Below are positions 14,907-30,968 of a stretch of DNA of 30,968 bases, one piece after another. The notes below the pieces were generated by a model that saw nothing but the letters and a program-made list of their open reading frames with translations, made no database searches and had not been told where the DNA came from. This DNA comes from a virus, in the IMG/VR virus record IMGVR_UViG_3300034073_000472; one strand, 5' to 3'. The position numbers were made by a program, and so were the translations under genes. Numbering within the stretch: the stretch's first letter is position 1; the number at the start of each line of letters is the position of its first letter.

Positions 14907-15620
14907 CTAATTGCTTTCGCTCAATGTCGTATCGTTCTTTTTCAAAAACGAGAAATGTGAAGGCCTCATGAACTCCAAGTTTTCCAACTCTTTCAAATCT
15001 CGTAACATCCCCTTGAGCGAGTTGATGGAATGAAGAGTACCATCCCCACTTTGCTCCAAATTGCGCTTCTGGTGTGTATTCGTTTTGGGGTTCTCCAAAT
15101 AGTTCAGAGTAGCGGTCAGTAAGTCGTTTCCTAAACGATAAAAAAAAAGCGTAGCCCCCATCACAACGTCCATAGGTGCCTGCTTCATTACGTCCGAGTA
15201 TTTGTGTGCTGATTCGTATGGCTCTATGTCATACCTCTTATGGGCACGTTCAATTATAGGCCGGTACAAGACCGCCATAGTCATGTGCATATTCTGTACA
15301 TCACTCATGTAATTGTCCAGATCCACGTACTCGCCAAAGGTCATCTCTTCGAGGTTGGGTATGAACCCAAACGTCTGTTCTCCAATGGTGAACTCTTGCT
15401 TCAACGCAGGACGCTCTGATAGCATGGCGTTGATGTGCCTCATCACATTCGCAACACTTGCAAACCGGACTTTGGGCAACTGATCCAATGGCACACCGCA
15501 AAAGATCTCCAGCATCTTATGGGTTAGAAATTCCTCATCCCCCTCAAGGCGAGCAAACCTTTGGTACTGCTCGAGGGTGATCTCTGATAGGGTGGTGGGT
15601 ACAATTACCTTGAGTTCCAT
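14907..15620 (-). CDS. Hypothetical protein (237 aa), first gene after terL
   Basis: ATG ORF ending in TAG, with a TAA two codons later. The stretch FGFIPNLEEMTFGEYVDLDNYM...MAVLYRPI recurs in phage morphogenesis-region proteins as I recall. The function is not assignable. Confidence 0.5.
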   Translation of the reverse strand: MELKVIVPTTLSEITLEQYQRFARLEGDEEFLTHKMLEIFCGVPLDQLPKVRFASVANVMRHINAMLSERPALKQEFTIGEQTFGFIPNLEEMTFGEYVDLDNYMSDVQNMHMTMAVLYRPIIERAHKRYDIEPYESAHKYSDVMKQAPMDVVMGATLFFYRLGNDLLTATLNYLENPKTNTHQKRNLEQSGDGTLHSINSLKGMLRDLKELENLEFMRPSHFSFLKKNDTTLSESN

Positions 15621-15642
15621 CTAATAAAATAACCTTGTGAAT

Positions 15643-16809
15643 TTAACGTATGGCATACCTGCCGTAATTAGGTCTGCTCAACTTATTGTAGGCCGCATAG
15701 CGGACGGCATCAATCGCATGGTTGAACGCATCTATGGGCTTGTTAAGCAGGTTTCCGTTCTTGTCTTCGACCCACTTGTAGTTCTGCAATTCTTTTTCCA
15801 GATTCTTGCTTCGTGGGGTGATGAATAGTCTATGTCTCTTCAGCATATCAATGCCCACGTTGATCGAATCGTTGCCCTTCTGGGTCGGCTTTACATTCCA
15901 CCCCATCCTGTGCAATTCCTCGATGCTCTTCGGTTCTGCGCTATCGGCAAAGATCTCGGACCTCCGGTCAAGCCCCAGATCCTTCAGCCGGTTGGCAATA
16001 TCTGGGTTGGTCATTCCTGTTTGGTAAAATAGCTCATCCAGATAAAGGTTGTCTCCGGACTTGTATACTGCTACCAATGTGCTGGGGTCATTCGTAAAAC
16101 CGAAGTCAAGTCCGTACGATAGCAGACTCGCCTCTTGCGGAATGTCATGGAGTCCAAACTGAAAAATCGTAGCACGACTCATGCCACGTTCTCCCAGACC
16201 ATAGACCCGCCAATAGTCATCATCCGTTCCCTTCAGTCGTTCGATCTCCTGTATAATTGTTTCATCCAGAAACGGATTGTCCTTGTAGGTGGTCTGATAG
16301 AACTCGCAGTCCTCACGGGTCAGCACCTTGTCGTAGATCCAGTGAAACGCATCTGACGGGTTATAGTCAAGGATCACCTTGCCATCGGTACGGAATATCA
16401 ACTGCTGCCAATCCTCGTAAAAGAGTTCATTGGCCTCGTTGATGTACAACAGGTTCCGTTTTCGCCCTCTGATCTTCTGGGGCTGGTCAAGTGAGATGAA
16501 CTCAATCAAGTTCCCATTCAGATAGTACTCTGAGTTGGACTTGTTATGATGTTCCTCTCGGTAGAGGTTATACTGACGTAGGATGTCGAAGAAGTCCCGC
16601 ATCACAGATGCCCGGAGTGATGGAAATGATTTGCGGCAAATGGTGATTGTCTTGCTCTTCTCCTTTACCGAATAGCTGAAGATGATCCATAACAGGATGT
16701 TGTAGGTCTTCCCGGAACGGGTACCCCCCTGCTCAACCGTGATTCGTTTCTCTGATCTCTCGAGGTGAGCAAATACCTTATTCGTTTGAATCTCCGAGTA
16801 TGCGGACAT
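15643..16809 (-). CDS. terL: Terminase large subunit (388 aa, PBSX/Terminase_3-like)
   Basis: Walker A is QGGTRSGKTY and Walker B is NLLYINEANE. The C-terminal nuclease region has GLDFGFTNDPS, ADSAEPKSI and NHAIDAVRYA. Confidence 0.9.
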   Translation of the reverse strand: MSAYSEIQTNKVFAHLERSEKRITVEQGGTRSGKTYNILLWIIFSYSVKEKSKTITICRKSFPSLRASVMRDFFDILRQYNLYREEHHNKSNSEYYLNGNLIEFISLDQPQKIRGRKRNLLYINEANELFYEDWQQLIFRTDGKVILDYNPSDAFHWIYDKVLTREDCEFYQTTYKDNPFLDETIIQEIERLKGTDDDYWRVYGLGERGMSRATIFQFGLHDIPQEASLLSYGLDFGFTNDPSTLVAVYKSGDNLYLDELFYQTGMTNPDIANRLKDLGLDRRSEIFADSAEPKSIEELHRMGWNVKPTQKGNDSINVGIDMLKRHRLFITPRSKNLEKELQNYKWVEDKNGNLLNKPIDAFNHAIDAVRYAAYNKLSRPNYGRYAIR

Positions 16810-17122
16810 TGAATAAGTTTTCTGTTGTCTGCTGGACTTCTTGTCTTTCGATGTATCCCCGATTCTTGCCCTTTGTCTTCAGGAAAAATATCGTAGCCGT
16901 AGAATTGCCCTCCCTGATCTGTTTGTGCAATTGGCTCTCCGCAAAGTCAAGAGCCATATCTCCGATGCTATCGACTTTCTCTTTGTACTCCGGATCCTCT
17001 TTCAGCCATCGGTAGTGGGTCTCTCTGGATATTCCCACGGACTTGGTAGCCGTAGTTACAATCCCGAGCGATTTCTCAAGGGCTTCAATCATCTGCCCTT
17101 TTTTAATGTCAGTCGTTGTCAT
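16778..17122 (-). CDS. terS: Terminase small subunit, HTH type (114 aa)
   Basis: The HTH is GIVTTATKSVGISRETHYRWLKEDPEYKEKV, followed by NSTATIFFLKTKGKNRGY. It overlaps terL by 32 nt. Confidence 0.75.
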   Translation of the reverse strand: MTTTDIKKGQMIEALEKSLGIVTTATKSVGISRETHYRWLKEDPEYKEKVDSIGDMALDFAESQLHKQIREGNSTATIFFLKTKGKNRGYIERQEVQQTTENLFNVRILGDSNE

Positions 17123-17859
17123 ACTCCTTTGATGGGTACCTTGATTATCGGGTTGAAGTCAAAGGATCTTTTGCTCCCCTTGTCCCGTGTTATTACATCC
17201 TTTCCCCATTTCTTCTGTAACAGGAAAAACTGCTCTTTCTCTCTCTTCAGATTTCGGTATGTTGCACAGCCTCCTGCTTGCTCTGCCTGCTTTACCTCAT
17301 AGTGGGCATAGTTGATGCGTAGGCATCCTCCGTAGGTTCTTATGTGTTCCAGAGAGATGTCGTAGTCCTCTTTGAGAGGTAGGTTTTCATCATACCGGAT
17401 GCTGCTCGTTTTGAGGTGAGCCTGAAAAGGTCCCCCGATGTATTGCAGAGTTCCAAAGGGCGTGTACTCTCGGTATGCTCCCTTGTCGGTAACGCAGTTC
17501 ACTCCCCAGAAGTGGAATCCAAAGTCCGAGCATAACTCGGCACATGATTCTGCAAACTCTTCGAGTTCCTGTGGGTTGAACTTGATCTTCTCCTGTTCCT
17601 CCCATCTCCCGATGTATGAGCAATCATCGTCAAGGATCACAATGCAGTCCGCATCATCAAATAGGTTGTCGAGGATCCAATTTCTCACACGGCACAGGTT
17701 TCCCTGCGCTGATTCTGGACAGACCACAATGTCGTTGCCATTCTTTCGGTATTCCTCTGCTTCTGACTCCCGGACTACCAGCGTAACGTTTGGGTAGTTC
17801 AGTTGGGTGATCGCCTTCTGCGGTCTCTTATACGATGGGGCGTAAAACTTAACCTTCAC
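17119..17859 (-). CDS. Predicted GT-A-fold glycosyltransferase-like protein (246 aa)
   Basis: First-strand motif FYAPSYKRP (compare IPTYNR of GT-A enzymes) and a DXD-type motif CIVILDDDCSY. ATGA overlap with terS. No TM segments. Confidence 0.5.
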   Translation of the reverse strand: MKVKFYAPSYKRPQKAITQLNYPNVTLVVRESEAEEYRKNGNDIVVCPESAQGNLCRVRNWILDNLFDDADCIVILDDDCSYIGRWEEQEKIKFNPQELEEFAESCAELCSDFGFHFWGVNCVTDKGAYREYTPFGTLQYIGGPFQAHLKTSSIRYDENLPLKEDYDISLEHIRTYGGCLRINYAHYEVKQAEQAGGCATYRNLKREKEQFFLLQKKWGKDVITRDKGSKRSFDFNPIIKVPIKGV

Positions 17860-18460
17860 CTTGTATGCGCTTTATTGCTTCCACACCATCCAACACACGA
17901 CCGATGCCCACAGACCACGGTTTTCCGTTAGCCCTCTTCGAAGCAACGCTCTCCAGACCGAACAATGTCTTTGCCTGAATCCAATCGATGTCCGTTGAGA
18001 ATTTAAGCACGAGGTAGTTCGACTCCGTGTCCAGCTCTACCGCAAACGGCTTCTCGCTATCATCGTTCACCGGATTGGTCATCTCCTGAATGTCATCTTC
18101 TGTGTAGGGTACGTCCATACCCCATTCGGCAAGAAGTTCTACATCCCATTGGTTCGCTAATGCTTCCCAATCCCATTCGCCAAACCCTACGTTGTCTTTG
18201 ATAATAAATTCTGCCTTCTGTTGCTCTGTCAGTTGGTCAGCGATCAGGATTGGCACCTCCGCCAGACCAGCAGCGATGCAAGCCTTCAATCGCATGTTGC
18301 CTCCCAGAACGATGTAGTTCTCATCTACCACGATAGGTCGCAGATCCAGCATCTGTGGAAAGTCCTTGATGCTCTGCACTAACTTTTTGAACTTCCCGTC
18401 CCGGATGATCCTCGGGTTGGTAGGATTTGGTTTAATGTCCTTGATGTTAACCTTTTGCAT
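17849..18460 (-). CDS. ParB N-terminal (ParB/Srx-fold) nuclease-like domain protein (203 aa)
   Basis: IKDIKPNPTNPRII...LVQSIKDFPQMLDLRPIVVDENYIVLGGNMRLKACIAAG is the classic ParB-N signature. No methylase domain is attached. Confidence 0.8.
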   Translation of the reverse strand: MQKVNIKDIKPNPTNPRIIRDGKFKKLVQSIKDFPQMLDLRPIVVDENYIVLGGNMRLKACIAAGLAEVPILIADQLTEQQKAEFIIKDNVGFGEWDWEALANQWDVELLAEWGMDVPYTEDDIQEMTNPVNDDSEKPFAVELDTESNYLVLKFSTDIDWIQAKTLFGLESVASKRANGKPWSVGIGRVLDGVEAIKRIQGEG

Positions 18461-18716
18461 TTTGCTTCTTGTTTAAGCGAAGATAGTGAGTTTCCTTGAG
18501 CCATTCCTTATGTTGAACCTTGTCTCCGTATTCCTCATGGCAGGATCGGCAAAGAGCCATGAGGTTTTCGATCACATCCTTGGTCTTACTTCCTCCCATC
18601 CCTCGAGCATCAATGTGGTGAATGTCCACCGCCTTGCTCTGACAGATCTCGCAGGGTATGAAGTCCGTAACATCATAGCCCATTGCCCGAAGGTAGACCT
18701 TTGTGTGTTTTCTCAT
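18447..18716 (-). CDS. HNH endonuclease (89 aa)
   Basis: CEICQSKAVDIHHIDARGMGGSK...NLMALCRSCHEEYG (Cys pairs plus HH...N...H). Confidence 0.85.
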   Translation of the reverse strand: MRKHTKVYLRAMGYDVTDFIPCEICQSKAVDIHHIDARGMGGSKTKDVIENLMALCRSCHEEYGDKVQHKEWLKETHYLRLNKKQNAKG

Positions 18717-19261
18717 TTCTGGAAAAGCCAGCAGTCATCAATGAAGGTAGCATGCGGTAATAGCTCATCTACCGCCCGGATCACTCCCTTCCAATTCTTA
18801 TGGTAGTCATCTCCTGCTATGTACCCTCCCTTTTTGACTTTCGGCAACCAGAGTTTGATGTCCTCCTTTACGGCTTCGTATGAATGGTCAAGGTCAATAA
18901 ACACAACGTCCAAAGAGCCGTCAGCGAACTTCTTTGCTGCCGTTTTGGATGTTGCTTTGATGGCCTTGAACTTTCTCTCGCCCATGTTCTCCAGAAACAA
19001 TTTGTATATGTCTTTGGTCTTGGCAAGTTTGTAGTACGAGTCAATGTACTCTGCCGTACCCTTGAACGAATCCACAATTGTGACATTTATTTCGTGGGAA
19101 TTATCACATAAATAGGCAGATGATTTGCCCAGCCATGCTCCGAGTTCTACAAAAGAGCCACCTTCCGGAACTTGCTTAATCAAGAAGTCGTATGCTGCTT
19201 GGTGGTTAAACCATCCCTCAATGTCTTGGTATCTTTTCATCGTAAAGCGTTGTAATAGCAA
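18713..19261 (-). CDS. Class I SAM-dependent methyltransferase (182 aa, Methyltransf_24/TylF-like pattern)
   Basis: Motif I is FVELGAWLGKSSAYL. Also VVFIDLDHSYEAVKEDIKLWLPKVKKGGYIAGDDY. Confidence 0.75.
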   Translation of the reverse strand: MLLQRFTMKRYQDIEGWFNHQAAYDFLIKQVPEGGSFVELGAWLGKSSAYLCDNSHEINVTIVDSFKGTAEYIDSYYKLAKTKDIYKLFLENMGERKFKAIKATSKTAAKKFADGSLDVVFIDLDHSYEAVKEDIKLWLPKVKKGGYIAGDDYHKNWKGVIRAVDELLPHATFIDDCWLFQK

Positions 19262-19764
19262 AGGTAGGCGTCCACACAGATAAGAGTCCCCCGAAGAGCA
19301 GCCGCTTGAGCAAATAACCCGTCTGCCTCGTAACTGCTTTGAAACCTCAAGGTTGGTAGGTGATAGGGTCTAAACATAAAGCATGCCGTGTCGATGTTTC
19401 CGACCTTCGGGTCAGTCGTTGGACGTAACCTCCCCTCCTGTCCCCATGTAACGATGCTTGAGTCAAGCGAGTTCAGGGAATCCCATTGCTCGTAGAACTT
19501 TGGATGCAGGATGTTGTCATCATCCAGATAGTAAACCCAATCGTTCTCCGTGAACTGATCTTGGTACAGGTCAAGGAACTCATTGCGGAGTGGGTGTCCC
19601 CAGAATCCGGAGTTCTGGGAGTAGTGAGTTACCGATGCGCCTGTTGCTTCCTTGAAGTCGCAATTTGCGTCCATCATCACCACCCACGTTGCCCACGGTG
19701 GAATGTACTGCCGGATTCTCTTCAGGTTCTCCGGTCGGGAGCAAGGGGTTACAATGTAAAGCAT
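19237..19764 (-). CDS. Predicted GT-A-fold glycosyltransferase (175 aa)
   Basis: MLYIVTPCSRPENL (first strand) and the DXD region WVYYLDDDNILHP. Later SYEADGLF. It overlaps both neighbours. Confidence 0.55.
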   Translation of the reverse strand: MLYIVTPCSRPENLKRIRQYIPPWATWVVMMDANCDFKEATGASVTHYSQNSGFWGHPLRNEFLDLYQDQFTENDWVYYLDDDNILHPKFYEQWDSLNSLDSSIVTWGQEGRLRPTTDPKVGNIDTACFMFRPYHLPTLRFQSSYEADGLFAQAAALRGTLICVDAYLCYYNALR

Positions 19765-20690
19765 CTCAGTTGGTTGATTTTGTCCATCGTGAAGTCTTGT
19801 ACGAACTCATATAGCGATTCTGCTATGTCATGGACTTGGTTAGGGTTATCGTTTAATCTCTTGATCGCTACTGCCCATTCTGACGGATGGTTGATGGCGA
19901 TGCAATTCTCTTTGGTGATGTACGGAGTATAAGGGTGAGTGTTACTCACGATCAGGGCACATTTGCTAAAGCCCGCCTCAAGCATCTTTAGATGCGATTT
20001 GCACTTGGCAAACTCTGATCCGACCAACGGAACCAAACTAACGTCAAAGAAGTCATACAGGCGATGGTATGAGTTCGGTGGGAACGTTTTGAGCGTGTAT
20101 GCTGCTTTCATCATCTGGGGGTAGCCATCCACATCAGCAACATAGGCCTCGTAGCCCGTTAGATCGATTCCTGATGCCTTTACATCCGCTTGGTGATGGT
20201 TCCCCCCAATATACCCGAACCGCACTTTGTCAGACGGCTCTCTGTTGATTTGCCAAGTGGGTACGCTAATAGCATTAGGCACAATCCGAATATTGCTATT
20301 GTATTTCCTGACCTTTGATGCAAGGTGCTTGTTGGTTACCCAGACCTCATCAGCCGCCTTCATGGAGCGAATGATCCTTGTCTTCATCTGATCCGCAAAG
20401 AATCCTTTGAGTGGATGGTTTGGGGGCAATACCCACCAGTCGTCTTGGTCCACTATTAGTTTGATTCCCTCCTTCCGGCACAACTTTACAAAGTCCTCAA
20501 ATGGCTCTACCGGAAAAGCACGGCTTGCAAATATGTGGGTAACCTTTTCCCAGATGGATGGCTCTACATCTGTAATCTTCTCGATGAAGTAAACGTCCGC
20601 CTCTTGATGGCAGATCAGGGGAGCAAATACCCGATGGTATGTAACACCGGAGTTCTGCTTGTGAAACGCCAGAACGAGTGGCCTACTCAT
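19749..20690 (-). CDS. Predicted GT-B-fold (GT1-like) glycosyltransferase (313 aa)
   Basis: The C-terminal region DVSLVPLVGSEFAKCKSHLKMLEAGFSKCALIVSNTHPY resembles the GT1 nucleotide-sugar binding motif (E..K.lEa.a.G.pvi.s). Confidence 0.6.
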   Translation of the reverse strand: MSRPLVLAFHKQNSGVTYHRVFAPLICHQEADVYFIEKITDVEPSIWEKVTHIFASRAFPVEPFEDFVKLCRKEGIKLIVDQDDWWVLPPNHPLKGFFADQMKTRIIRSMKAADEVWVTNKHLASKVRKYNSNIRIVPNAISVPTWQINREPSDKVRFGYIGGNHHQADVKASGIDLTGYEAYVADVDGYPQMMKAAYTLKTFPPNSYHRLYDFFDVSLVPLVGSEFAKCKSHLKMLEAGFSKCALIVSNTHPYTPYITKENCIAINHPSEWAVAIKRLNDNPNQVHDIAESLYEFVQDFTMDKINQLRCFTL

Positions 20691-20964
20691 AGTGTTCCCC
20701 TGTATTGCCGTTCTGACCGATGATGTCCATCCTCTTGTTTAGTTCCTCTTCCCGCATTTCCCATTCAAGGTCTCGCTGATGGTTTGAACAGGGGGTATGG
20801 TATCCTGCATGGGCGATCTCTTGCTCTGTCCGCATCCATTCATTCATGGCATGCCTCTCCAGATACTGCACCCACATCTTTGCAGCTACTGCCCTACGTT
20901 GGGGCTTGAACAGATAGGTGCTACGCAAACGTGCCATAGCGATCCGCATAAATTGTTCTCGCAT
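20683..20964 (-). CDS. Hypothetical protein (93 aa)
   Basis: ATG ORF. Its TAG stop overlaps the GT-B start. The C-terminal MDIIGQNGNTGEHYE is a motif I have seen recurrently in small phage proteins, but I cannot name the family. Confidence 0.5.
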   Translation of the reverse strand: MREQFMRIAMARLRSTYLFKPQRRAVAAKMWVQYLERHAMNEWMRTEQEIAHAGYHTPCSNHQRDLEWEMREEELNKRMDIIGQNGNTGEHYE

Positions 20965-20976
20965 CTTTGCTTGGTT

Positions 20977-21207
20977 TTAAGAATTTATGTCGACCCCGTT
21001 CTCAAGCATAAGATCACGAAGTTTGTCTCTGCATTTCTCGTAGGTCTCATATTTGTCTTTAGAGTATTCGTTGTCTGGCATATACTTGTATTGTACTCTT
21101 AGCCATTGGTCCATCTCCCAGAGTACTAATTGCATCTTTGCTCCGTTTACCGCCAGCTCAAACTCGGGTCGTTCTTCGGGTAGGTTGTATTCAAGTCTTG
21201 CTTTCAT
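20977..21207 (-). CDS. Hypothetical protein (76 aa)
   Basis: ATG ORF in the track. Its leader accaacgagaaATGAA is nearly identical to that of the 21468..21677 gene. Confidence 0.5.
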   Translation of the reverse strand: MKARLEYNLPEERPEFELAVNGAKMQLVLWEMDQWLRVQYKYMPDNEYSKDKYETYEKCRDKLRDLMLENGVDINS

Positions 21208-21219
21208 TTCTCGTTGGTG

Positions 21220-21471
21220 TTAAAGTTTAGTTTTTACGTATTTAATTTTTTCTTGCTCTGTTAAGTCAGAAAAGAACTGTACAGCTATTGCTTTTCCAAA
21301 CAATACTTTCTTTGCCATTGCAAATCTTTCCTTAAGTGTAGTGTATTCCTTATCGTAATTGAGAGGTTTAGCAATCATCCATCCCTCCAATTTATTACCG
21401 TCAACCACTACACATACTGATTCTTGAACTGAATCATCTTTTAATAGTTCGTCTATTAAGATTGCTTTCAT
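21220..21471 (-). CDS. Hypothetical protein (83 aa)
   Basis: ATG ORF with an ATGA overlap with the upstream gene. Confidence 0.5.
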   Translation of the reverse strand: MKAILIDELLKDDSVQESVCVVVDGNKLEGWMIAKPLNYDKEYTTLKERFAMAKKVLFGKAIAVQFFSDLTEQEKIKYVKTKL

Positions 21472-21677
21472 TCCTCTTTGGTGTTAGAGTTTTTGTTGAG
21501 GTGTTGCTCATACATATTTACTGTATCTGCCTGCCCAGTAGCATACCAATCAATCATCTGCTCCTTCTCTTTCTCAAGTAGTGACTCTGCCCATCTTTTG
21601 ATTGTTTCAATAGAACAGAACTCTGTTGGCTTTACATTGTTGAGTTTATCAATCAACTCTTGCATTGGTGTTTTCAT
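21468..21677 (-). CDS. Hypothetical protein (69 aa), paralog of 26124..26363
   Basis: It shares MKT.MQE... and SLL.KEKEQMI with the 79-aa protein, and 30/31 nt are identical between 21550-21580 and 26230-26260. Confidence 0.55.
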   Translation of the reverse strand: MKTPMQELIDKLNNVKPTEFCSIETIKRWAESLLEKEKEQMIDWYATGQADTVNMYEQHLNKNSNTKEE

Positions 21678-21807
21678 TTCTCGTTGGTTTTTATGATTCC
21701 AAAAAGTGCCACTATTCTAATTTATTGGCATTTTTTTGAATGTTTATATTTTGCCAAAACTCTATTTCATTTCCGCTTTTGGCGGGTTTTCACTTCCGTT
21801 GTTGGCG

Positions 21808-22578
21808 TTACAACTCCCCGAAGATCGTGTACGAGTCCAAGTCCTCACCCAAGATGAAGAACTGCTTGTAGGTTTCAATTGCCTCCATTGTCTTGCGCTC
21901 TCCCTCCTGAATGAACTCCGGACTGACCGAATAGATCCCCACATCTAAACTCGCCTTGTCAATGGCGATAAAGTAAAAACGATCAATCGGCACACCGAAT
22001 AATCGGGTGTAGATGAACGCCTGCACATCGTATCCATATTTCTTTGCCGAATATGGGAATGCCCGAAGATCCGTAGTGGTTTTCAGATCCGCCAAAAAGC
22101 CATCAGCAATGATGTCTGCCTTTGCCCGGAATGGCAACCCTCCGATCATACCGATAGCAGGTTGCTCAAAGTCGCATCCCTGAATAAGATCCAGAACATG
22201 CTCGTTCCTCAAAAGGGCATCAGCCACTCTCTGTGCTTCATCATACTCCTTCCGGGTGCAGATATTCCTCTTGCCTTTTGCTTCCTGCCATGCTTTGGCA
22301 TTTTTGCTCTGGACTTCAATCACCTCGTACTCTTCTACCCGATGAGGTTCCAACGCCATGAGGTGAGTCAACCGACCTACCGCAAAAGCATCTGAATCCT
22401 GACTGCCATACTTGGTAACGTAATGGTAGGTCTTCGGTGAGGTAAGTAATAATTTACAAGCAGTAGAGCTTAAAGCATTCTTTGACAAGTTCCCATAGTA
22501 AAACTCATCATCATGCATCTTGGTCTTCAGGGTGTCCAGATCCCAAGTCGTTCCGTCAAGTAGTTCAATTATTTTCAT
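21808..22578 (-). CDS. PD-(D/E)XK exonuclease (RecE C-terminal / exonuclease VIII-like, 256 aa)
   Basis: The catalytic-core pattern is FRAKADIIADGFLADLKTTTD (D...D-x-K), followed by YGYDVQAFIY (the Q..Y motif typical of this family). Confidence 0.7.
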   Translation of the reverse strand: MKIIELLDGTTWDLDTLKTKMHDDEFYYGNLSKNALSSTACKLLLTSPKTYHYVTKYGSQDSDAFAVGRLTHLMALEPHRVEEYEVIEVQSKNAKAWQEAKGKRNICTRKEYDEAQRVADALLRNEHVLDLIQGCDFEQPAIGMIGGLPFRAKADIIADGFLADLKTTTDLRAFPYSAKKYGYDVQAFIYTRLFGVPIDRFYFIAIDKASLDVGIYSVSPEFIQEGERKTMEAIETYKQFFILGEDLDSYTIFGEL

Positions 22579-22750
22579 AAAATCCTTCGAAGTATTGTTG
22601 TTCTGACTTACCGGAGTCGCTCTGAAGTTTCCCTAAATAGAAAGCAGTCTCAATAGCATTACGCTCGATGCGTAGAAATGCCTCTTTGGTGGCATCTGGA
22701 AATTCCGGATGCAGCTCAAAGAATACGGTAAAAGGGGTTTTTGGTTTCAT
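22565..22750 (-). CDS. Hypothetical protein (61 aa, using the internal ATG at 22750)
   Basis: The track ORF starts at 22807, inside a terminator hairpin. The internal start MKPKTPFTVFFELHPEF... avoids it. It overlaps the nuclease gene by 14 nt. Confidence 0.45.
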   Translation of the reverse strand: MKPKTPFTVFFELHPEFPDATKEAFLRIERNAIETAFYLGKLQSDSGKSEQQYFEGFYENN

Positions 22751-24718: not shown

Positions 24719-25121
24719 AAGCGTTGTAAAGGGTTTCCAATTCCTGAAGACGGCCTCTCAAACAAGACCCGCAGTTCGTTCCCTGAACATTGTCCCGGAA
24801 TACCCGATTGTAGATCTTATTCAGTTCCACCTGTTCAAAAGCAGTAACTACATTCCGTCCCTTCATCTTTCCGATAAACTCGTACTCCGGTTGTGTTAAG
24901 CACTCCGGCTTCCGGTATCTCCAGATCTGGTTTAGCTTCTCCTTTCGGGCATCGCATCCGCAATCCACGCCTGTTGCTTCGCTGAACCAGTCAACCGCAG
25001 CTTTGATTCCTGTGGCGGTAGTAATTTTCTCGATCGTGTCTCCCAGCCCCTCACTCTTCTTTGGCTTCCTTCCACGCTTCGTAGGCATCTCTGCACTCAT
25101 CTTTGATTCGTTCTCTTGCAT
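24708..25121 (-). CDS. Cys-rich hypothetical protein (137 aa, start uncertain)
   Basis: The basic N-terminus (KRGRKPKK) is followed by GLGDTIEKITTATGIKAAVDWF...CGCDARKEKLN and later CGSC. The GLGDT...TGIK...CGC pattern recurs in phage proteins of unknown function. The track start overlaps the sigma gene by 71 nt; alternative ATGs are at 25100 and 25088. Confidence 0.5.
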   Translation of the reverse strand: MQENESKMSAEMPTKRGRKPKKSEGLGDTIEKITTATGIKAAVDWFSEATGVDCGCDARKEKLNQIWRYRKPECLTQPEYEFIGKMKGRNVVTAFEQVELNKIYNRVFRDNVQGTNCGSCLRGRLQELETLYNAYEV

Positions 25122-25587
25122 TTTTTAAAGTGTTGAAAATTGAACGTGCTGATATTTTAGTTTCTCCGGCCAACGTCCGGATGCTCATGTCCGTATTGTG
25201 ATACAGGGCAAAGATCTTTTTGTCATACCAATGCCAGTCATCCGTGGTCTCCCAGATCTCTTCGTATAACTGCATCATGTTCACCTCGGCCTCTTCGTTG
25301 ACCTCTTCGAAGATCAATTGGTCCTCCAGAGTAGATACGTCCACAAACTCAAAGCGGCTCTTAGCCTTCATTAGTGAGTTGTACATATTCCTCAAACTGA
25401 CGTAGACAAAGAACGTGTTTACCTCTGTCTCCGAGTACATGATCTTCTGTGGGTCATCCACATATTTGTGCAACCTCACGTACATCTCCTGCACTAAATC
25501 CTCCGCAAGTTCTTGGCTTGCGCCAAAACTTTTTGCCATCCGGATCCAGTCCGTATGCCTATTTGCGAGGATTGTTAAGATTCCCAA
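25051..25587 (-). CDS. Phage-encoded sigma-70-family (ECF-like) sigma factor (178 aa from a TTG; possible ATG start at 25539)
   Basis: Region 2 is AEDLVQEMYVRLHKY ... FFVYVSLRNMYNSLMK. The region 4 HTH is FALYHNTDMSIRTLAGETKISARSIFNTLKNARERIK. The codon at 25587 is TTG, and there is no in-frame ATG upstream. Confidence 0.7.
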   Translation of the reverse strand: MGILTILANRHTDWIRMAKSFGASQELAEDLVQEMYVRLHKYVDDPQKIMYSETEVNTFFVYVSLRNMYNSLMKAKSRFEFVDVSTLEDQLIFEEVNEEAEVNMMQLYEEIWETTDDWHWYDKKIFALYHNTDMSIRTLAGETKISARSIFNTLKNARERIKDECRDAYEAWKEAKEE

Positions 25588-29456: not shown

Positions 29457-29882
29457 TTATTCCGTCAACTTGTCTACCCAGCGTTTGATCAGGTAGGCAA
29501 ATGTCAGGATGAAAGCCAACATGCCGATGTAGCTCTCAAGAGTCCACTTGTTGGTCTTTGGCTCCTGTTTTGTCAGGATCTTCGTTTGGGTTATCCGGAT
29601 GGTATCCGGCTCACAGACCGCCTCGACCACGACCTTGCGGTCTACGTACTGAAGTTGGACTCGTACCTTGTCCTGATAGATGGTCGTGTCCTTCATTACC
29701 TCCAGCGTGTCGATCAGGTACTTTGTTTCCGTTACAACGAGCGTGTCCCTGACAATCACAGAGTCGAGGATGGGTTTCGCAGTACTGCACGAATTAACTA
29801 CCGCAAGAGTCGCAAGTAGGATCATCCACATTGCAGACCTCTGGAGTCTCTTGTTTTTCCAATTCATTAAGCCAGTCATCAA
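29457..29882 (-). CDS. Putative unimolecular spanin (141 aa)
   Basis: N-terminal lipoprotein-type signal (MWMILLATLAVVNSC) plus a C-terminal TM helix (YIGMLAFILTFAYLIKRWV). It is immediately downstream of the endolysin, overlapping it by 4 nt. The architecture matches the T1 gp11-type u-spanin. Confidence 0.6.
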   Translation of the reverse strand: MMTGLMNWKNKRLQRSAMWMILLATLAVVNSCSTAKPILDSVIVRDTLVVTETKYLIDTLEVMKDTTIYQDKVRVQLQYVDRKVVVEAVCEPDTIRITQTKILTKQEPKTNKWTLESYIGMLAFILTFAYLIKRWVDKLTE

Positions 29883-30322
29883 AATTCAAGGTACTTGGTT
29901 CTGCCATTTCGTTTTACTGCTTTCAGTTTCTGCATTCGGTTCTTGCCCGCTACGTAACTAACATGAACCCATGCCGGGTGTTCCTCATCTCCAAATTCCC
30001 AGATGATCTGATCGTATTCCACATTCTCCACGATCCACCGGAACAATACCCCATTGCCTCCGTGAAACTTCAAATCTGCCGCTTGCGCTTGGACGTGCTG
30101 CGAGGTCTTGCTTCCGCCTACGGCTTTGTTTACCGCAGGTGAACGATACGCACTCGTGACTTTTATTGACCCTAAACTGTCACGAGCAGGTTGTAAGACG
30201 TTTTCTGCCAACGCACGAAGGTTGCCCTCCAGATGCTTCGGTAAAGCATTAGGAAGGCCTGTATTCGTTTTGGTCAGTTCAGCGAGCGTAAAGTTCTTGG
30301 TCATTGAATGAGTTTTTGTCAA
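29879..30322 (-). CDS. Endolysin, peptidase M15 (VanY / D-Ala-D-Ala carboxypeptidase-like, 147 aa)
   Basis: NFTLAELTKT...VTSAYRSPAVNKAVGGSKTSQHVQAQAADL...PAWVHVSY gives H..D...H zinc ligands in the usual M15 context. Alternative start at M7. Confidence 0.85.
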   Translation of the reverse strand: MTKTHSMTKNFTLAELTKTNTGLPNALPKHLEGNLRALAENVLQPARDSLGSIKVTSAYRSPAVNKAVGGSKTSQHVQAQAADLKFHGGNGVLFRWIVENVEYDQIIWEFGDEEHPAWVHVSYVAGKNRMQKLKAVKRNGRTKYLEF

Positions 30323-30558
30323 ATTTCATGCAAATATTGCGGATTGCGATCTGCGATATTACGGATCAAGTATTATGCGTAACGTGCATTATACTGCACA
30401 AAAGTGATACGATTTGTTCCTTTATTCGGACACAATCCGAATTAGCCTACAAAATTTAACGGCCCTGACCTGCGTAGGGCTTTTTGTAATTCTTGCTCCG
30501 CTTGTTGCTCGATGCGCTCTTGCTATGCTTTCTGCGCTTCTTGCTTTTGCTCACATGA

Positions 30559-30747
30559 CTACTTGCTACCGGACTCTTTGCCATCTTTAGGATCTTTAAG
30601 GAACAACAGGGCGAAGGCACCCATCAGGAATGCCGATACCTCCGTCAGGGTAGCTTTCTCAAAAAACACCAAGACAAAGCAAAGGCCCACTATAAGCAGG
30701 CCTAATACTGTTGTCTTTGGGTCTTTCCAAATACGCTCAATCAACAT
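30559..30747 (-). CDS. Holin candidate (62 aa, two TM helices, charged C-terminus)
   Basis: TTVLGLLIVGLCFVLVFF and VSAFLMGAFALLFL, followed by KDPKDGKESGSK. It ends in TAG, and the frame stays open beyond it (see findings). Confidence 0.6.
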   Translation of the reverse strand: MLIERIWKDPKTTVLGLLIVGLCFVLVFFEKATLTEVSAFLMGAFALLFLKDPKDGKESGSK

Positions 30748-30910
30748 TGTTTTTTTCCTTTAGCCAATCTCTGCGCCACTTCCACAAGGTGTAGGCAAGC
30801 GATGCCAAAAGCACCGCCAAGCCCAATACCTGATGAACGTACCCGACAAGGAGTCCTGCTCCCGTTAAAGACCAAGAGGTGATAACTGAATCAGCCGACT
30901 CCTTTGTCAT
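30737..30910 (-). CDS. Second holin-like membrane protein (57 aa), below the track cutoff; its 5' end lies in the terminal repeat
   Basis: Hand translation from ATG 30910-30908 (equivalent to 41-39): MTKESADSVITSWSLTGAGLLVGYVHQVLGLAVLLASLAYTLWKWRRDWLKEKNNVD, ending at TGA. It overlaps the 62-aa start by 11 nt. Confidence 0.45.
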   Translation of the reverse strand: MTKESADSVITSWSLTGAGLLVGYVHQVLGLAVLLASLAYTLWKWRRDWLKEKNNVD

Positions 30911-30968
30911 CTTTGTTGATTGTATTCTCGTAGGCCTGAATCAGTACACGGACTTCATCAAGTTGCAT
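30870..30968. repeat. Terminal direct repeat, copy 2 (identical to 1..99)
   Basis: Exact 99-nt identity with the start of the window. Confidence 0.95.

Follow-up and report, generated by a model that had tools for sequence, protein, structure and literature searches.

What does a virus modify with three glycosyltransferases, a methyltransferase, an HNH endonuclease and a ParB-like protein whose genes run directly into those of its terminase? The locus lies in a viral genome of 30,968 nucleotides (IMG/VR record IMGVR_UViG_3300034073_000472, hereafter the window, meaning the whole stretch of DNA analysed), which is complete, as judged from the 99-bp terminal direct repeat at its ends. The six-gene block (17119–20690) is 3572 bp long and takes up 11.6% of the genome's 30,869 unique bp. 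An earlier note on this DNA had described six overlapping minus-strand genes leading into terS and terL, with junction overlaps of 4–25 nt and a length of about 3.6 kb in a genome of about 30.9 kb, and all of these ORFs and dimensions were recovered (Table 1). From GTB313 through GTA175, the methyltransferase, HNH, ParB203 and TAGT246 to terS, the overlaps measure 16, 25 (or 4), 4, 14, 11 and 4 nt. The alternative value reflects the start of the methyltransferase, which is most likely the ATG at 19240, giving 175 residues and a 4-nt overlap with GTA175, because a 69%-identical orthologue in the relative L117 begins at the corresponding residue, Met8 of the longer ORF. Since no intergenic gap between 21677 and 10493 exceeds 25 nt, one long transcription unit spanning the block and the packaging genes is plausible.

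Table 1. Genes of the block and its borders in the window.
Feature	Coordinates	Strand	Description
p93	20683..20964	minus	small protein preceding the trio in trio relatives; function not assigned
GTB313	19749..20690	minus	313 aa; GT-B-type glycosyltransferase; trio gene 1
GTA175	19237..19764	minus	175 aa; minimal GT-A, GT43-like fold; trio gene 2
MT182/175	18713..19240	minus	class I SAM methyltransferase; trio gene 3; long ORF version 18713–19261, 182 aa
HNH endonuclease	18447..18716	minus	89 aa; Pfam HNH
ParB203	17849..18460	minus	203 aa; Pfam ParB_N
TAGT246	17119..17859	minus	246 aa; GTG start; Pfam TAGT
terS	16778..17122	minus	small terminase subunit; downstream border of the slot; PHROG families
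terL	15643..16809	minus	large terminase subunit; Terminase_3/Terminase_3C

The protein classes named in the earlier note were upheld by Pfam, PHROG, AF2 and Foldseek comparisons, but its treatment of the block as a single pathway was not. Across about 190 related loci, the ParB+TAGT pair and the GT-B/GT-A/MT trio each occur without the other, and the six genes thus do not behave as one unit. We consider it somewhat better than an even bet that the block combines independent modules heading the late (packaging) transcription unit, in which the ParB+TAGT pair (Module A, 17119–18460) modifies DNA and the trio (Module B, 18713–20690) is separate. For Module A, DNA glycosylation is the reading we prefer, with DNA as the probable substrate.

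TAGT246 is a member of TAGT (PF20691; 1.6e-11; 45 bits, cut-off 27.5). This family includes the T2/T6 DNA glucosyltransferase, and those of its members that have been characterised glycosylate DNA. Residues 6–197 of TAGT246 align to positions 4–205 of the 205-position profile, a full-length match, and the protein also matches phrog_842, 'beta-glucosyl-HMC-alpha-glucosyltransferase' (8e-18). R59, D77-D78-D79 and E164-D165-Y166 are invariant across 28 sequences, including homologues from Streptococcus and Clostridium phages. The R...DDD...EDY motif typical of DNA-directed GT-A enzymes is retained in TAGT246; according to Pyle et al., phage DNA GT-A enzymes share it with trypanosome JGT. The AF2 model adopts a GT-A fold with moderate confidence (pLDDT 73, below 70 in the C-terminal half), and its best PDB fold matches are TarS (4.8e-6) and TarP (1e-4), likewise the top fold matches for the DNA GT-A enzymes of Pyle et al. 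Over 80 viral loci TAGT246 is better conserved (67–89% identity) than terL (27–74%), which favours a substrate common to all phages, such as DNA, over virion proteins that differ between lineages. We therefore predict that TAGT246 is a DNA glycosyltransferase and the cargo enzyme of a ParB-terminase slot.

The partner protein points in the same direction. ParB203 consists of a ParB-type nucleotide-binding N-domain (residues 1–120; Pfam ParB_N, 2.5e-8; PDB matches to Spo0J/ParB N-domains, down to 5e-6) and a C-terminal adaptor domain (residues 121–203). The N-domain is 73–78% identical to those of ParBs partnered with methylase, 5mYOX, UGM or ABC-type cargo, whereas conservation of the C-domain is limited to ParBs with a TAGT partner, at 85%, 64% and, in Streptococcus phage Javan291, 51% identity, the last despite an N-domain only 33% identical. 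The C-domain is also 34–57% identical in 25 of the 26 loci from genomes that carry TAGT. We predict that ParB203 is an activator or DNA-loading partner of TAGT246; a cognate 5mYOX is activated on dsDNA by ParB (PMC13229309).

What else occupies this position is informative. In 72 trio-bearing sibling loci, the interval from HNH to terL is empty in 51 and otherwise holds a fusion of ParB with an N6/N4 DNA methylase of the DPPY type (8), ParB with a TET/JBP dioxygenase whose 120 best homologues all carry PF12851 (4), ParB with a 314-aa protein and a UDP-galactopyranose mutase (3; PDB match 4e-100), ParB with an ABC-ATPase-like protein (3), ParB with a divergent TAGT 35% identical to TAGT246 (2) or ParB with an unknown protein (1); a TAGT246-type enzyme occurs in none of the 72. 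The pair itself is widespread. ParB lies directly 5' of TAGT, with terS/terL 3', in 78 of 80 IMG/VR viral loci and in 25 of the 26 genome loci, which come from Bacteroidota, Lentisphaerota, Planctomycetota, Spirochaetota, Nitrospinota, Bacillota, Alphaproteobacteria and CPR; the arrangement recurs in Javan291 and in Clostridium phage CS266P2. Altogether, phages of at least 10 bacterial phyla contribute about 100 loci with the pair just 5' of terS, and the pair remains 40–58% identical in phages of many phyla whose structural proteins are unrelated and whose terminases differ. The earlier note had judged DNA glycosylation a poor fit. Given the TAGT family, the ParB-N neighbour and slot-mates that are DNA methylases or TET/JBP enzymes, that possibility was set aside too early.

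We propose that the slot directly 5' of terS holds interchangeable DNA-modifying enzymes, each of which would rely on a ParB-type nucleotide-binding domain for delivery or activation. Here the cargo would be TAGT246, a GT-A enzyme of the TAGT/JGT DNA-glycosyltransferase family, with ParB203 contributing the shared N-domain and the adaptor confined to TAGT partners. Together they may use a host nucleotide-sugar to glycosylate replicated phage DNA late in infection, at or just before packaging, and the added sugar could protect that DNA against nucleases of the host.

The acceptor poses a difficulty for DNA as the substrate. To our knowledge, all characterised TAGT/JGT-type enzymes need a hydroxyl acceptor, namely 5hmC, 5hmU or a sugar already on DNA. 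As the earlier note had found, the genome encodes no hydroxymethylase, TET/JBP, dNMP kinase or integrase, nor a DNA polymerase, according to Pfam scans of nearly all ORFs of at least about 90 aa (five ORFs of 92–97 aa, one of them overlapped by the scans, and smaller ORFs were left out), and a 5mYOX HMM built for this analysis found no match in any of the six frames. This complete genome thus cannot make any of the three acceptors, which counts against DNA, as does the separation of the enzymes elsewhere: over flanks of 6–10 kb outside the window, 5mYOX was found in 0 of 112 TAGT loci, where the known acceptor is therefore missing, and TAGT in 0 of 5 5mYOX loci. The acidity of TAGT246 (pI 5.9) and ParB203 (pI 4.6), atypical of DNA-binding proteins, and the failure to detect a DNA-binding domain also weigh against it. 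Because no 5hmC- or 5hmU-producing enzyme is encoded, either a canonical DNA position would be glycosylated directly or the acceptor would be supplied from elsewhere.

The trio is inherited separately. GTB313 matches phrog_7162, 'glycosyltransferase' (7.9e-49), and is 28–30% identical to phi92 gp164 and its relatives, annotated as GT-B fold; its own Pfam match is weak (E 0.06), and members of its family match Glyco_trans_1_4 (6/10) and Glyco_trans_1_2 (5/10; best 4e-6). GTA175 has no match in Pfam or PHROG, and one of its 165 homologues carries PF00535; within its motif TPCSRP...DDDN, the DDDN is invariant among homologues. Its AF2 model (pLDDT 95.4) resembles the GT43 enzyme GlcAT-P (1v82; Foldseek 5e-8, TM 0.73), with further matches to AvpGT and WrtF and, among viral structures, to giant-virus and phage GT2 domains. 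The third protein matches Methyltransf_24 (1.1e-19) and, just below threshold, TylF (1.1e-4, 22 bits; cut-off 23), and is likely, from these matches, a sugar O-methyltransferase. The trio is intact in 54 of 54 sibling loci and is present without ParB or TAGT in L117, whose GT-B orthologue is 78% identical to GTB313, and in L118; this constancy and the 51 empty slots indicate that it works without Module A. Module B may accordingly be viewed as a lineage-conserved cassette that would assemble a short, probably O-methylated glycan, and that here could add to a sugar placed on DNA by TAGT or decorate another target, such as a virion protein or host glycan.

The neighbours of the trio are similarly constant. 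HNH (Pfam HNH, 8e-9) follows the methyltransferase in 61 of 61 trio-bearing loci with downstream sequence and is variable in TAGT-anchored loci (17/80); at the trio/slot boundary it is probably a packaging accessory. Nearly every MT-anchored locus with upstream sequence has a p93 homologue (59–84% identity) just 5' of its GT-B gene. p93 itself has no match in Pfam or PHROG, and its interpretation as a C5-methylase remnant was rejected. The major capsid protein is 91–99% identical across trio-bearing contigs, the set to which the comparison applies. The window has the backbone of the trio lineage, into which the ParB-TAGT cargo appears to have been imported recently. Its terminase genes are recognisable (terS matches PHROG small-subunit families at 4.5e-8 and 2.7e-7; terL matches Terminase_3 at 6.8e-26 and Terminase_3C at 4.7e-21), and the closest isolates by terL are Flavobacterium phages (41% identity).

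It is also conceivable, if doubtful for the block as a whole, that the target is the virion: the glycosyltransferases and methyltransferase would then decorate proteins of the capsid, tail or fibres with a methylated glycan, similar to what is seen in some mycobacteriophages and in chlorovirus PBCV-1. The earlier note had called virion glycosylation the closest precedent. It is still live for the trio, and only there: the trio is soluble, lies beside late genes and is kept regardless of slot content, and since most trio loci have no nearby ParB-linked DNA enzyme, it needs an ever-present acceptor, such as the virion proteins of a lineage with so uniform a capsid. The giant-virus multi-GT proteins among the structural neighbours of GTA175 fit as well, as does the same GT-A-then-MT order in distant phages beside a GDP-mannose-dehydratase/epimerase gene, typical of deoxy-sugar glycan synthesis. 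PBCV-1 A064R likewise combines two rhamnosyltransferase domains with a methyltransferase domain. Virion glycosylation is a poor fit for TAGT246 and ParB203, whose conservation crosses phyla with unrelated structural proteins and whose slot-mates are DNA enzymes.

Alternatively, the whole block could be one DNA-hypermodification pathway, in which TAGT adds the first sugar to phage DNA, GTB313 and GTA175 lengthen the chain and the methyltransferase caps it, yielding a DNA-bound methylated oligosaccharide. Phage clusters with 2–3 successive GTs make di- or trisaccharides on 5hmC, with epimerases and other sugar enzymes alongside (bioRxiv 10.1101/2023.12.21.572611), and O-methyltransferase genes are reported to neighbour 5mYOX (PMC13229309). 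The trio adjoins ParB+5mYOX in four sibling loci, a formally complete pathway; two other subclades again have GT-B homologues close to ParB-TAGT, and tandem TAGT paralogues in two genome loci suggest stepwise glycosylation. Independent inheritance nevertheless makes a single pathway unlikely: TAGT246-type enzymes are missing from the slots of trio relatives, 56 of 80 TAGT loci carry no trio gene, the trio methyltransferase is absent from all 80, and the pair looks recently imported into a trio backbone.

A host target is very improbable. In this reading the trio would remodel LPS, capsule or lipid-linked glycans, and TAGT would modify a nucleotide, protein or nucleic acid of the host, either to exclude superinfecting phages or to take over the cell. 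In its favour, the best PDB neighbours of TAGT246, TarS and TarP, are wall-teichoic-acid GlcNAc transferases (TarP prophage-encoded), and the weak PDB profile matches of the GTB313 family, whose phi92-type relatives have no assigned function, belong to GT-B group 1. Against it, the ParB-TAGT pair spans Gram-positive, Gram-negative and CPR hosts with very different envelopes, the obligate ParB and the DNA enzymes that share its slot indicate DNA, neither a flippase nor a GtrA/B-like or membrane component was found, and Pfam scans of the genome revealed no lysogeny genes. The earlier note had argued here from the lack of TM segments; none is present in the block proteins (top Kyte-Doolittle 19-residue mean 1.51, in ParB203), but this does not exclude lipid-linked host glycans, on which peripheral GT-B enzymes such as WaaG and MurG act without one.

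Our preferred reading, a DNA-modifying Module A beside a separate trio, has parallels in known systems, and the earlier claim that the arrangement is undescribed was overstated. GTs, ParB, terminases, endonucleases and O-methyltransferases co-occur in phage DNA-hypermodification clusters (PMC13229309), and GT gene neighbourhoods of DNA hypermodification have also been published (bioRxiv 10.1101/2023.12.21.572611). The 'ParB-terminase locus' of DNA-modification genes is a named concept, and the window's ParB+TAGT slot 5' of terS matches it (PMC4738411).

The six minus-strand genes that run into terS and terL are a composite rather than the single unit envisaged in the earlier note, since related loci carry two parts of them separately: a trio consisting of the glycosyltransferases GTB313 and GTA175 and the methyltransferase MT182, and a pair consisting of the ParB-like protein ParB203 and the 246-aa glycosyltransferase TAGT246. 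The ORFs themselves lie where that note had placed them, and its fold and class calls for the six proteins are borne out by Pfam, PHROG and structure-model matches, with GT-B as the probable fold of GTB313. For the ParB-TAGT pair, the best-supported reading is a ParB-coupled DNA glycosyltransferase that would act late, near packaging; the trio probably makes an O-methylated glycan independently of the pair.

Genes of the block and the adjoining terminase genes
Feature	Coordinates	Strand	Basis
GTB313, 313 aa	19749-20690	minus	ORF call
GTA175, 175 aa	19237-19764	minus	ORF call
MT182, 182 aa	18713-19261	minus	ORF call
HNH, 89 aa	18447-18716	minus	ORF call; Pfam HNH endonuclease 8e-9
ParB203, 203 aa	17849-18460	minus	ORF call; Pfam ParB_N 2.5e-8
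TAGT246, 246 aa	17119-17859	minus	ORF call; Pfam TAGT
terS	16778-17122	minus	next after TAGT246, with terL
terL	15643-16809	minus	next after TAGT246, with terS

An exact 99-bp terminal direct repeat (1-99 and 30870-30968), whose junction is crossed by no large ORF, establishes that the window is a complete genome that assembled as a circle; its unique length is 30,869 bp and every gene is on the minus strand. From GTB313 through terS, successive genes overlap by 16, 25 (or 4), 4, 14, 11 and 4 nt. The ATG at 19240 is the probable start of the methyltransferase, as a 69%-identical orthologue begins with the same methionine. All intergenic gaps from 21677 down to 10493 are 25 nt or less, which makes one long late transcription unit over this interval plausible. 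A scan for sigma-70-type promoters and terminators, whose coverage does not extend to Bacteroidota promoters, found nothing above chance. The terL product is nearest to those of Flavobacterium phages (41% identity), and a nucleotide search of 15000-22600 against 50,697 phage records returned zero matches.

Pfam scans took in nearly all window ORFs of at least about 90 aa, apart from five of 92-97 aa (one of them overlapped) and smaller ones. Outside the block they identified an exonuclease, a sigma-like protein, a DnaB-like helicase, a portal protein, a prohead protease and an M15 endolysin, to which PHROG searches add a RusA-like resolvase and tape-measure-like matches. Among these ORFs they found no TET/JBP enzyme, ThyA-like hydroxymethylase, dNMP kinase, C5-methylase, DNA polymerase or integrase. 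The earlier note was thus right that the phage encodes neither an integrase nor a base-hydroxymethylating enzyme, and also that the block holds no membrane protein, a TM-like segment being absent from all six products. Elsewhere in the genome, an early 178-aa protein (25051-25587) weakly resembles sigma-70 region 2 and a phage sigma factor PHROG, and a similar sigma-like gene precedes a GT-A plus methyltransferase cassette in a distant phage (L085). The 646-bp 'gap' at 30323-30968, by the M15 endolysin gene (29879-30322), holds short, holin-like ORFs with hydrophobic stretches.

TAGT246 matches PF20691, the Pfam 'TET-associated glycosyltransferase' (TAGT) family, over almost the whole profile (residues 6-197 on positions 4-205 of 205; 45.0 bits, cut-off 27.5), and it matches phrog_842, 'beta-glucosyl-HMC-alpha-glucosyltransferase', at 8e-18. 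Precomputed annotation places PF20691 on nearly all of 120 TAGT246 homologues among the matches listed. Its residues R59, D77-D78-D79 and E164-D165-Y166 are invariant in an alignment of 28 sequences, and an R...DDD...EDY motif has been reported for DNA-directed phage GT-A enzymes and the trypanosome enzyme JGT (bioRxiv 10.1101/2023.12.21.572611). A moderately confident structure model (pLDDT 73) gave TarS and TarP as best Foldseek matches, followed by DPMS and GalNAc-T; a PDB sequence search with the TAGT profile was uninformative. On this model TAGT246 is predicted to have a GT-A fold with an R...DDD...EDY/F active-site motif.

The pairing of TAGT with ParB is strict. An IMG/VR scan with TAGT246 found 168 relatives, of which 80 loci were fetched; in all of these TAGT-anchored loci that have upstream sequence, ParB and TAGT lie directly upstream of terS/terL, and the order holds even where the terminase is of a different type (27-40% identity). 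Across them TAGT is better conserved (67-89% identity) than ParB (42-81%) or terL (27-74%). ParB also directly precedes TAGT in 25 of 26 loci of bacterial genomes and MAGs, with terS/terL-like genes next in most of them; the 26 come from Chitinophagaceae, Lentisphaerae, Phycisphaerae, Treponema, Nitrospinales, Phascolarctobacterium, Alphaproteobacteria, Eubacteriales, Staphylococcaceae, Victivallis, Bacteroides and Roizmanbacteria, and the ParB-TAGT-terminase order recurs in Streptococcus phage Javan291 and Clostridium phage CS266P2. Two of these MAG loci, from Phycisphaerae (L094:2497-3204) and Roizmanbacteria (L115:5228-5992), carry two tandem TAGT paralogues between ParB and terS, with Pfam TAGT matches of 8e-15 and 1.5e-11; this arrangement hints at two successive sugar additions.

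ParB203 appears to be built from two parts. Pfam detects only ParB_N (residues 2-90), and PDB matches are limited to the same domain; a PDB sequence search with the C-domain found nothing. Over residues 1-120, identity to the ParBs of sibling, trio-bearing loci is 73-78% whatever their associated enzyme, including 73-75% for the N-domain of ParBs partnered with the TET/JBP-type dioxygenase 5mYOX (L151, L194). Residues 121-203, by comparison, are conserved only among TAGT-partnered ParBs (85% and 64% in the viral set) and fall to 29% against the ParB of a divergent TAGT. In Javan291 the C-domain is 51% identical and the N-domain only 33%, and a ParB203-type C-domain is present in 25 of the 26 bacterial loci at 34-57% identity, usually above that of the N-domain. 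We interpret these alignments as indicating a shared N-domain chassis joined to a TAGT-specific C-terminal adaptor that is co-inherited with TAGT. That TAGT and this adaptor are kept across phages with unrelated virions argues for a universal substrate, for which DNA would be the obvious candidate. A longer TAGT-associated ParB of 385 aa, with ParB_N at 193-267 and an additional N-terminal region, occurs in a Subdoligranulum contig (L106:4848-6005).

The position occupied by the pair is a slot for exchangeable cargo. We classified the interval from HNH to terL wherever a trio-bearing locus spans it, which is so in 72. The slot is empty in 51 and otherwise holds a ParB N-domain fused to a DPPY-type N6/N4 DNA methylase (8 loci), ParB with a dioxygenase (4, three of them also with an FkbM-type methyltransferase), ParB with a 314-aa protein and UDP-galactopyranose mutase (3), ParB with an ABC-ATPase-like protein (3), ParB with a divergent TAGT (2) or ParB with an unknown 242-aa protein (1). 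Slot ParB never occurs in these loci without cargo, fused or neighbouring. The dioxygenase is of the TET/JBP type, as PF12851 (Tet_JBP) falls on all of its 120 best homologues.

Several other occupants of the slot and its surroundings deserve mention. The galactofuranose-type slot (L144, L158-L160, e.g. L160:6791-9354; three trio-bearing loci) encodes ParB, a 314-aa DDN-motif protein and a bona fide UDP-galactopyranose mutase (4e-100 to PDB 3hdq), a combination that suggests a ParB-coupled galactofuranose modification; hhalign rejected the 314-aa protein as a TAGT. In L187, L190 and L192 (e.g. L190:7285-8346) the cargo is a protein of 353 aa that matches ABC-type ATPase domains in its N-terminal region and looks GNAT-like by eye in its C-terminal half (the RLVVLPDYQGIGIG segment); it might act on DNA as an acyl- or acetyl-transferase. 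In several relatives (L118:1722-2585, L016:6507-7361, L010:1151-2020, L067, L084) HNH or ParB is closely preceded by a gene for a 287-aa protein with an N-terminal, PP-loop-like SGGKTS and C-terminal Cys clusters, resembling the PAPS-reductase/DndC-like enzymes of phage DNA-modification loci; Pfam and PDB searches with it gave no match. Downstream of terL, the distance of the 237-aa protein gene (window 14907-15620, phrog_32199) from terL varies among relatives (offsets of 2.2-5.5 kb from TAGT), which points to a second insertion hot-spot, occupied by a GT-B homologue in L005-L009.

Against the predicted ParB-coupled DNA glycosyltransferase stand the absence of an acceptor-making enzyme from the genome and the acidic pI of both ParB203 and TAGT246. 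No source of a known acceptor (5mYOX with or without a C5-methyltransferase, a ThyA-like hydroxymethylase, or an alpha/beta-glucosyltransferase) was found by Pfam among nearly all ORFs of at least about 90 aa in the complete genome. An HMM built from the sibling 5mYOX enzymes had no match in six frames of the window and none in 112 TAGT loci. The five loci that do bear 5mYOX (L120, L147, L151, L194 and, by a match to this HMM, probably L198) are all without TAGT. In two relatives, 20 kb of precomputed Pfam annotation showed no dioxygenase, only ParB_N-TAGT-terS-terL, and a Pfam screen of 101 neighbour-cluster representatives of relatives, with the top 25 of 36 families listed, gave DNA methylases, a hexapeptide transferase and an FkbM methyltransferase among these and no Tet_JBP. 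Because TAGT and 5mYOX are never found together in these loci, they seem to behave as alternative cargos in this phage group, not as successive steps. C-5 cytosine DNA methylases (3e-66) are encoded in the early region of some relatives (L033:2205-3290, L117:3657-4658), with no TET/JBP gene nearby.

All characterised TAGT/JGT-type GT-A enzymes use 5hmC, 5hmU or a DNA-attached sugar (bioRxiv 10.1101/2023.12.21.572611), and a 'solitary TAGT' class, found in 288 of 753 phage genomes, has been treated as functionally undefined (NAR 2026). This genome, with a TAGT and no acceptor pathway, matches that class. It is conceivable, though we consider it unlikely, that the ParB-partnered TAGT glycosylates DNA without any hydroxymethyl-pyrimidine, with ParB as a clamp that loads or activates the enzyme when the DNA is packaged. 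The target would then be a canonical base (e.g. an exocyclic amine) or another native position of DNA. If true, a compact module of two genes, spread over phages of at least 10 bacterial phyla, would perform a new kind of DNA modification, and glycosylation of canonical DNA would also explain the many 'solitary TAGT' genes.

The trio has its own distribution. GTB313 matches phrog_7162 'glycosyltransferase' at 8e-49; its own Pfam GT-B match is below threshold (E 0.06), its PDB profile matches are weak, and members of its family match Glyco_trans_1_4 and Glyco_trans_1_2 (best 4e-6). GTA175 has no Pfam or PHROG match; its AlphaFold2 model, based on 42 homologues (pLDDT 95.4), matches the GT43 enzyme GlcAT-P 1v82 (E 5e-8, TM 0.73) and other small GT-A enzymes, and we assign it a GT43-like GT-A fold as modelled. 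Both its N-terminal (V/I)TP.xSRP motif (TPCSRP) and its DDDN motif are unchanged across 42 sequences. MT182 matches Methyltransf_24 (1e-19) and, near threshold, TylF (1e-4); PDB sequence searches with MT182 and with GTB313 were uninformative. A reciprocal scan anchored on the methyltransferase yielded 80 loci at 70-92% identity, in which the order GT-B, GT-A, methyltransferase is unbroken in 54 of 54 loci with upstream flank and HNH follows the methyltransferase in 61 of 61. None of the 80 TAGT-anchored loci contains the methyltransferase, only six contain GTA175, and their GT-B homologues are distant and variable in position. In the 29.7-kb sibling genome L117/L118 the trio is present, with identities of 78, 72 and 69%, and ParB and TAGT are both absent. 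In distant phages GT-A followed by the methyltransferase adjoins a GDP-mannose-dehydratase/epimerase gene, or GT-A stands alone, with no TAGT; the 261- and 263-aa genes beside the distant cassette, tested as hidden TAGTs, are not TAGTs. We likewise rejected p93, the small protein gene before the trio, as a C5-cytosine methylase remnant, the seeming link having come from ORF merging in clustering.

The capsid protein indicates which part of the composite is native. Its 80 best relatives are 91-99% identical, with at least seven on trio-bearing contigs and none on TAGT-anchored contigs; those that could be cross-matched are the trio-bearing ones. This kinship places the window's backbone, as judged from capsid identity, in the trio lineage, and makes the ParB-TAGT pair look imported from a sister group.

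The trio could act on DNA, on virion protein or on a glycan of the host. In mycobacteriophage operons and in PBCV-1 (A064R), soluble viral glycosyltransferase and methyltransferase genes adjoin late genes and methylated glycans are found on virion proteins. These systems are a possible analogue of the trio, the likeness being one of gene content alone. The virion-glycosylation precedent cited in the earlier note may, as a less likely reading, apply to the trio; it cannot be applied to ParB and TAGT, which are kept across phages with unrelated virions. T-even-type glucosylation and Gtr-type seroconversion do not fit: the scanned window proteins gave no Pfam match to a dCMP hydroxymethylase, dNMP kinase, GT-B PF11440 / PF09198 or phage DNA polymerase, and the temperate-phage set of membrane GtrA/GtrB/GtrC finds no counterpart in six proteins with no TM-like segment and a genome with no integrase in Pfam scans.

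Hypermodification of phage DNA yields new DNA chemistry, resistance to restriction and CRISPR, and enzymes for epigenomics, and the published framework requires a hydroxymethyl handle (5hmC or 5hmU) before sugar is added. The window and about 110 related loci present a strongly conserved ParB-TAGT pair with no means of making that handle. The slot also offers a panel of cargos (methylase, dioxygenase, TAGT, galactofuranose module) on a near-identical ParB chassis, which could help to dissect how ParB domains activate DNA-modifying enzymes. The trio, in turn, is a separate and abundant marine-phage cassette.

Among known systems, the phi92-like phages (Stephanstirmvirinae) offer one comparison. 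Their gp164, annotated as a GT-B fold, is 28-30% identical to GTB313 over 98% of its length and also sits in a multi-glycosyltransferase cluster (gp163-gp166), which adjoins replication genes and not, as in the window, packaging genes. We rejected this cluster as the same three glycosyltransferase families, because the only resemblance of gp165 and gp166 to TAGT246 and GTA175 is a generic DXD segment. TAGT246 resembles the DNA GT-A enzymes, here the T2/T6 beta-glucosyl-HMC-alpha-glucosyltransferase, the 5mYOX-dependent phage GT-A (Pyle et al., bioRxiv 2023) and the trypanosome base-J glucosyltransferase JGT, with which it has in common PF20691, the GT-A fold, R...DDD...EDY and TarP/TarS as nearest solved structures. 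Those enzymes use 5hmC, 5hmU or a DNA-borne sugar, whereas the window encodes no route to these.

For ParB203 a close parallel is 5mYOX176/ParB176, in which a short ParB-like protein, with a nucleotide-binding and a C-terminal domain and no recognisable DNA-binding domain, lies beside its cognate enzyme near the terminase. That pairing is cognate-specific, and the window's siblings carry such ParB-5mYOX pairs; here, however, the partner is a glycosyltransferase and the dioxygenase is absent from the genome. We know of no case of glycosyltransferase activation by a ParB. On double-stranded DNA, the thymine dioxygenase of the published pair is activated by its cognate ParB-like partner (O'Toole et al., PNAS 2026, PMC13229309), and the commonest neighbours in that study were glycosyltransferases, ParBs, terminases, endonucleases and O-methyltransferases (PMC13229309).

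The window also has the features of the ParB-terminase (ParB-Tls) locus, in which a ParB gene directly precedes the terminase genes and the DNA-modifying enzyme encoded in between varies: ParB203, TAGT246, terS and terL follow one another, the first three with overlaps of 11 and 4 nt, and the cargo differs among siblings, with fused N6/N4 methylases, TET/JBP dioxygenases and TAGTs as examples. It differs in having a TAGT cargo without a TET/JBP partner and a ParB C-domain specific to TAGT partners. The view of the earlier note that the arrangement is undescribed is overstated: DNA-hypermodification clusters of glycosyltransferase, ParB, endonuclease and O-methyltransferase genes beside the terminase are already published, as is the ParB-terminase locus. 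TAGT itself was reportedly defined by Iyer et al. in NAR in 2013. Relative to published accounts other than that 2013 paper, which stands outside this comparison, three features appear to be new: the strict and widespread pairing of ParB with TAGT without a hydroxylase, the TAGT-specific ParB C-terminal domain, and the range of cargos that occurs naturally with a single ParB chassis.
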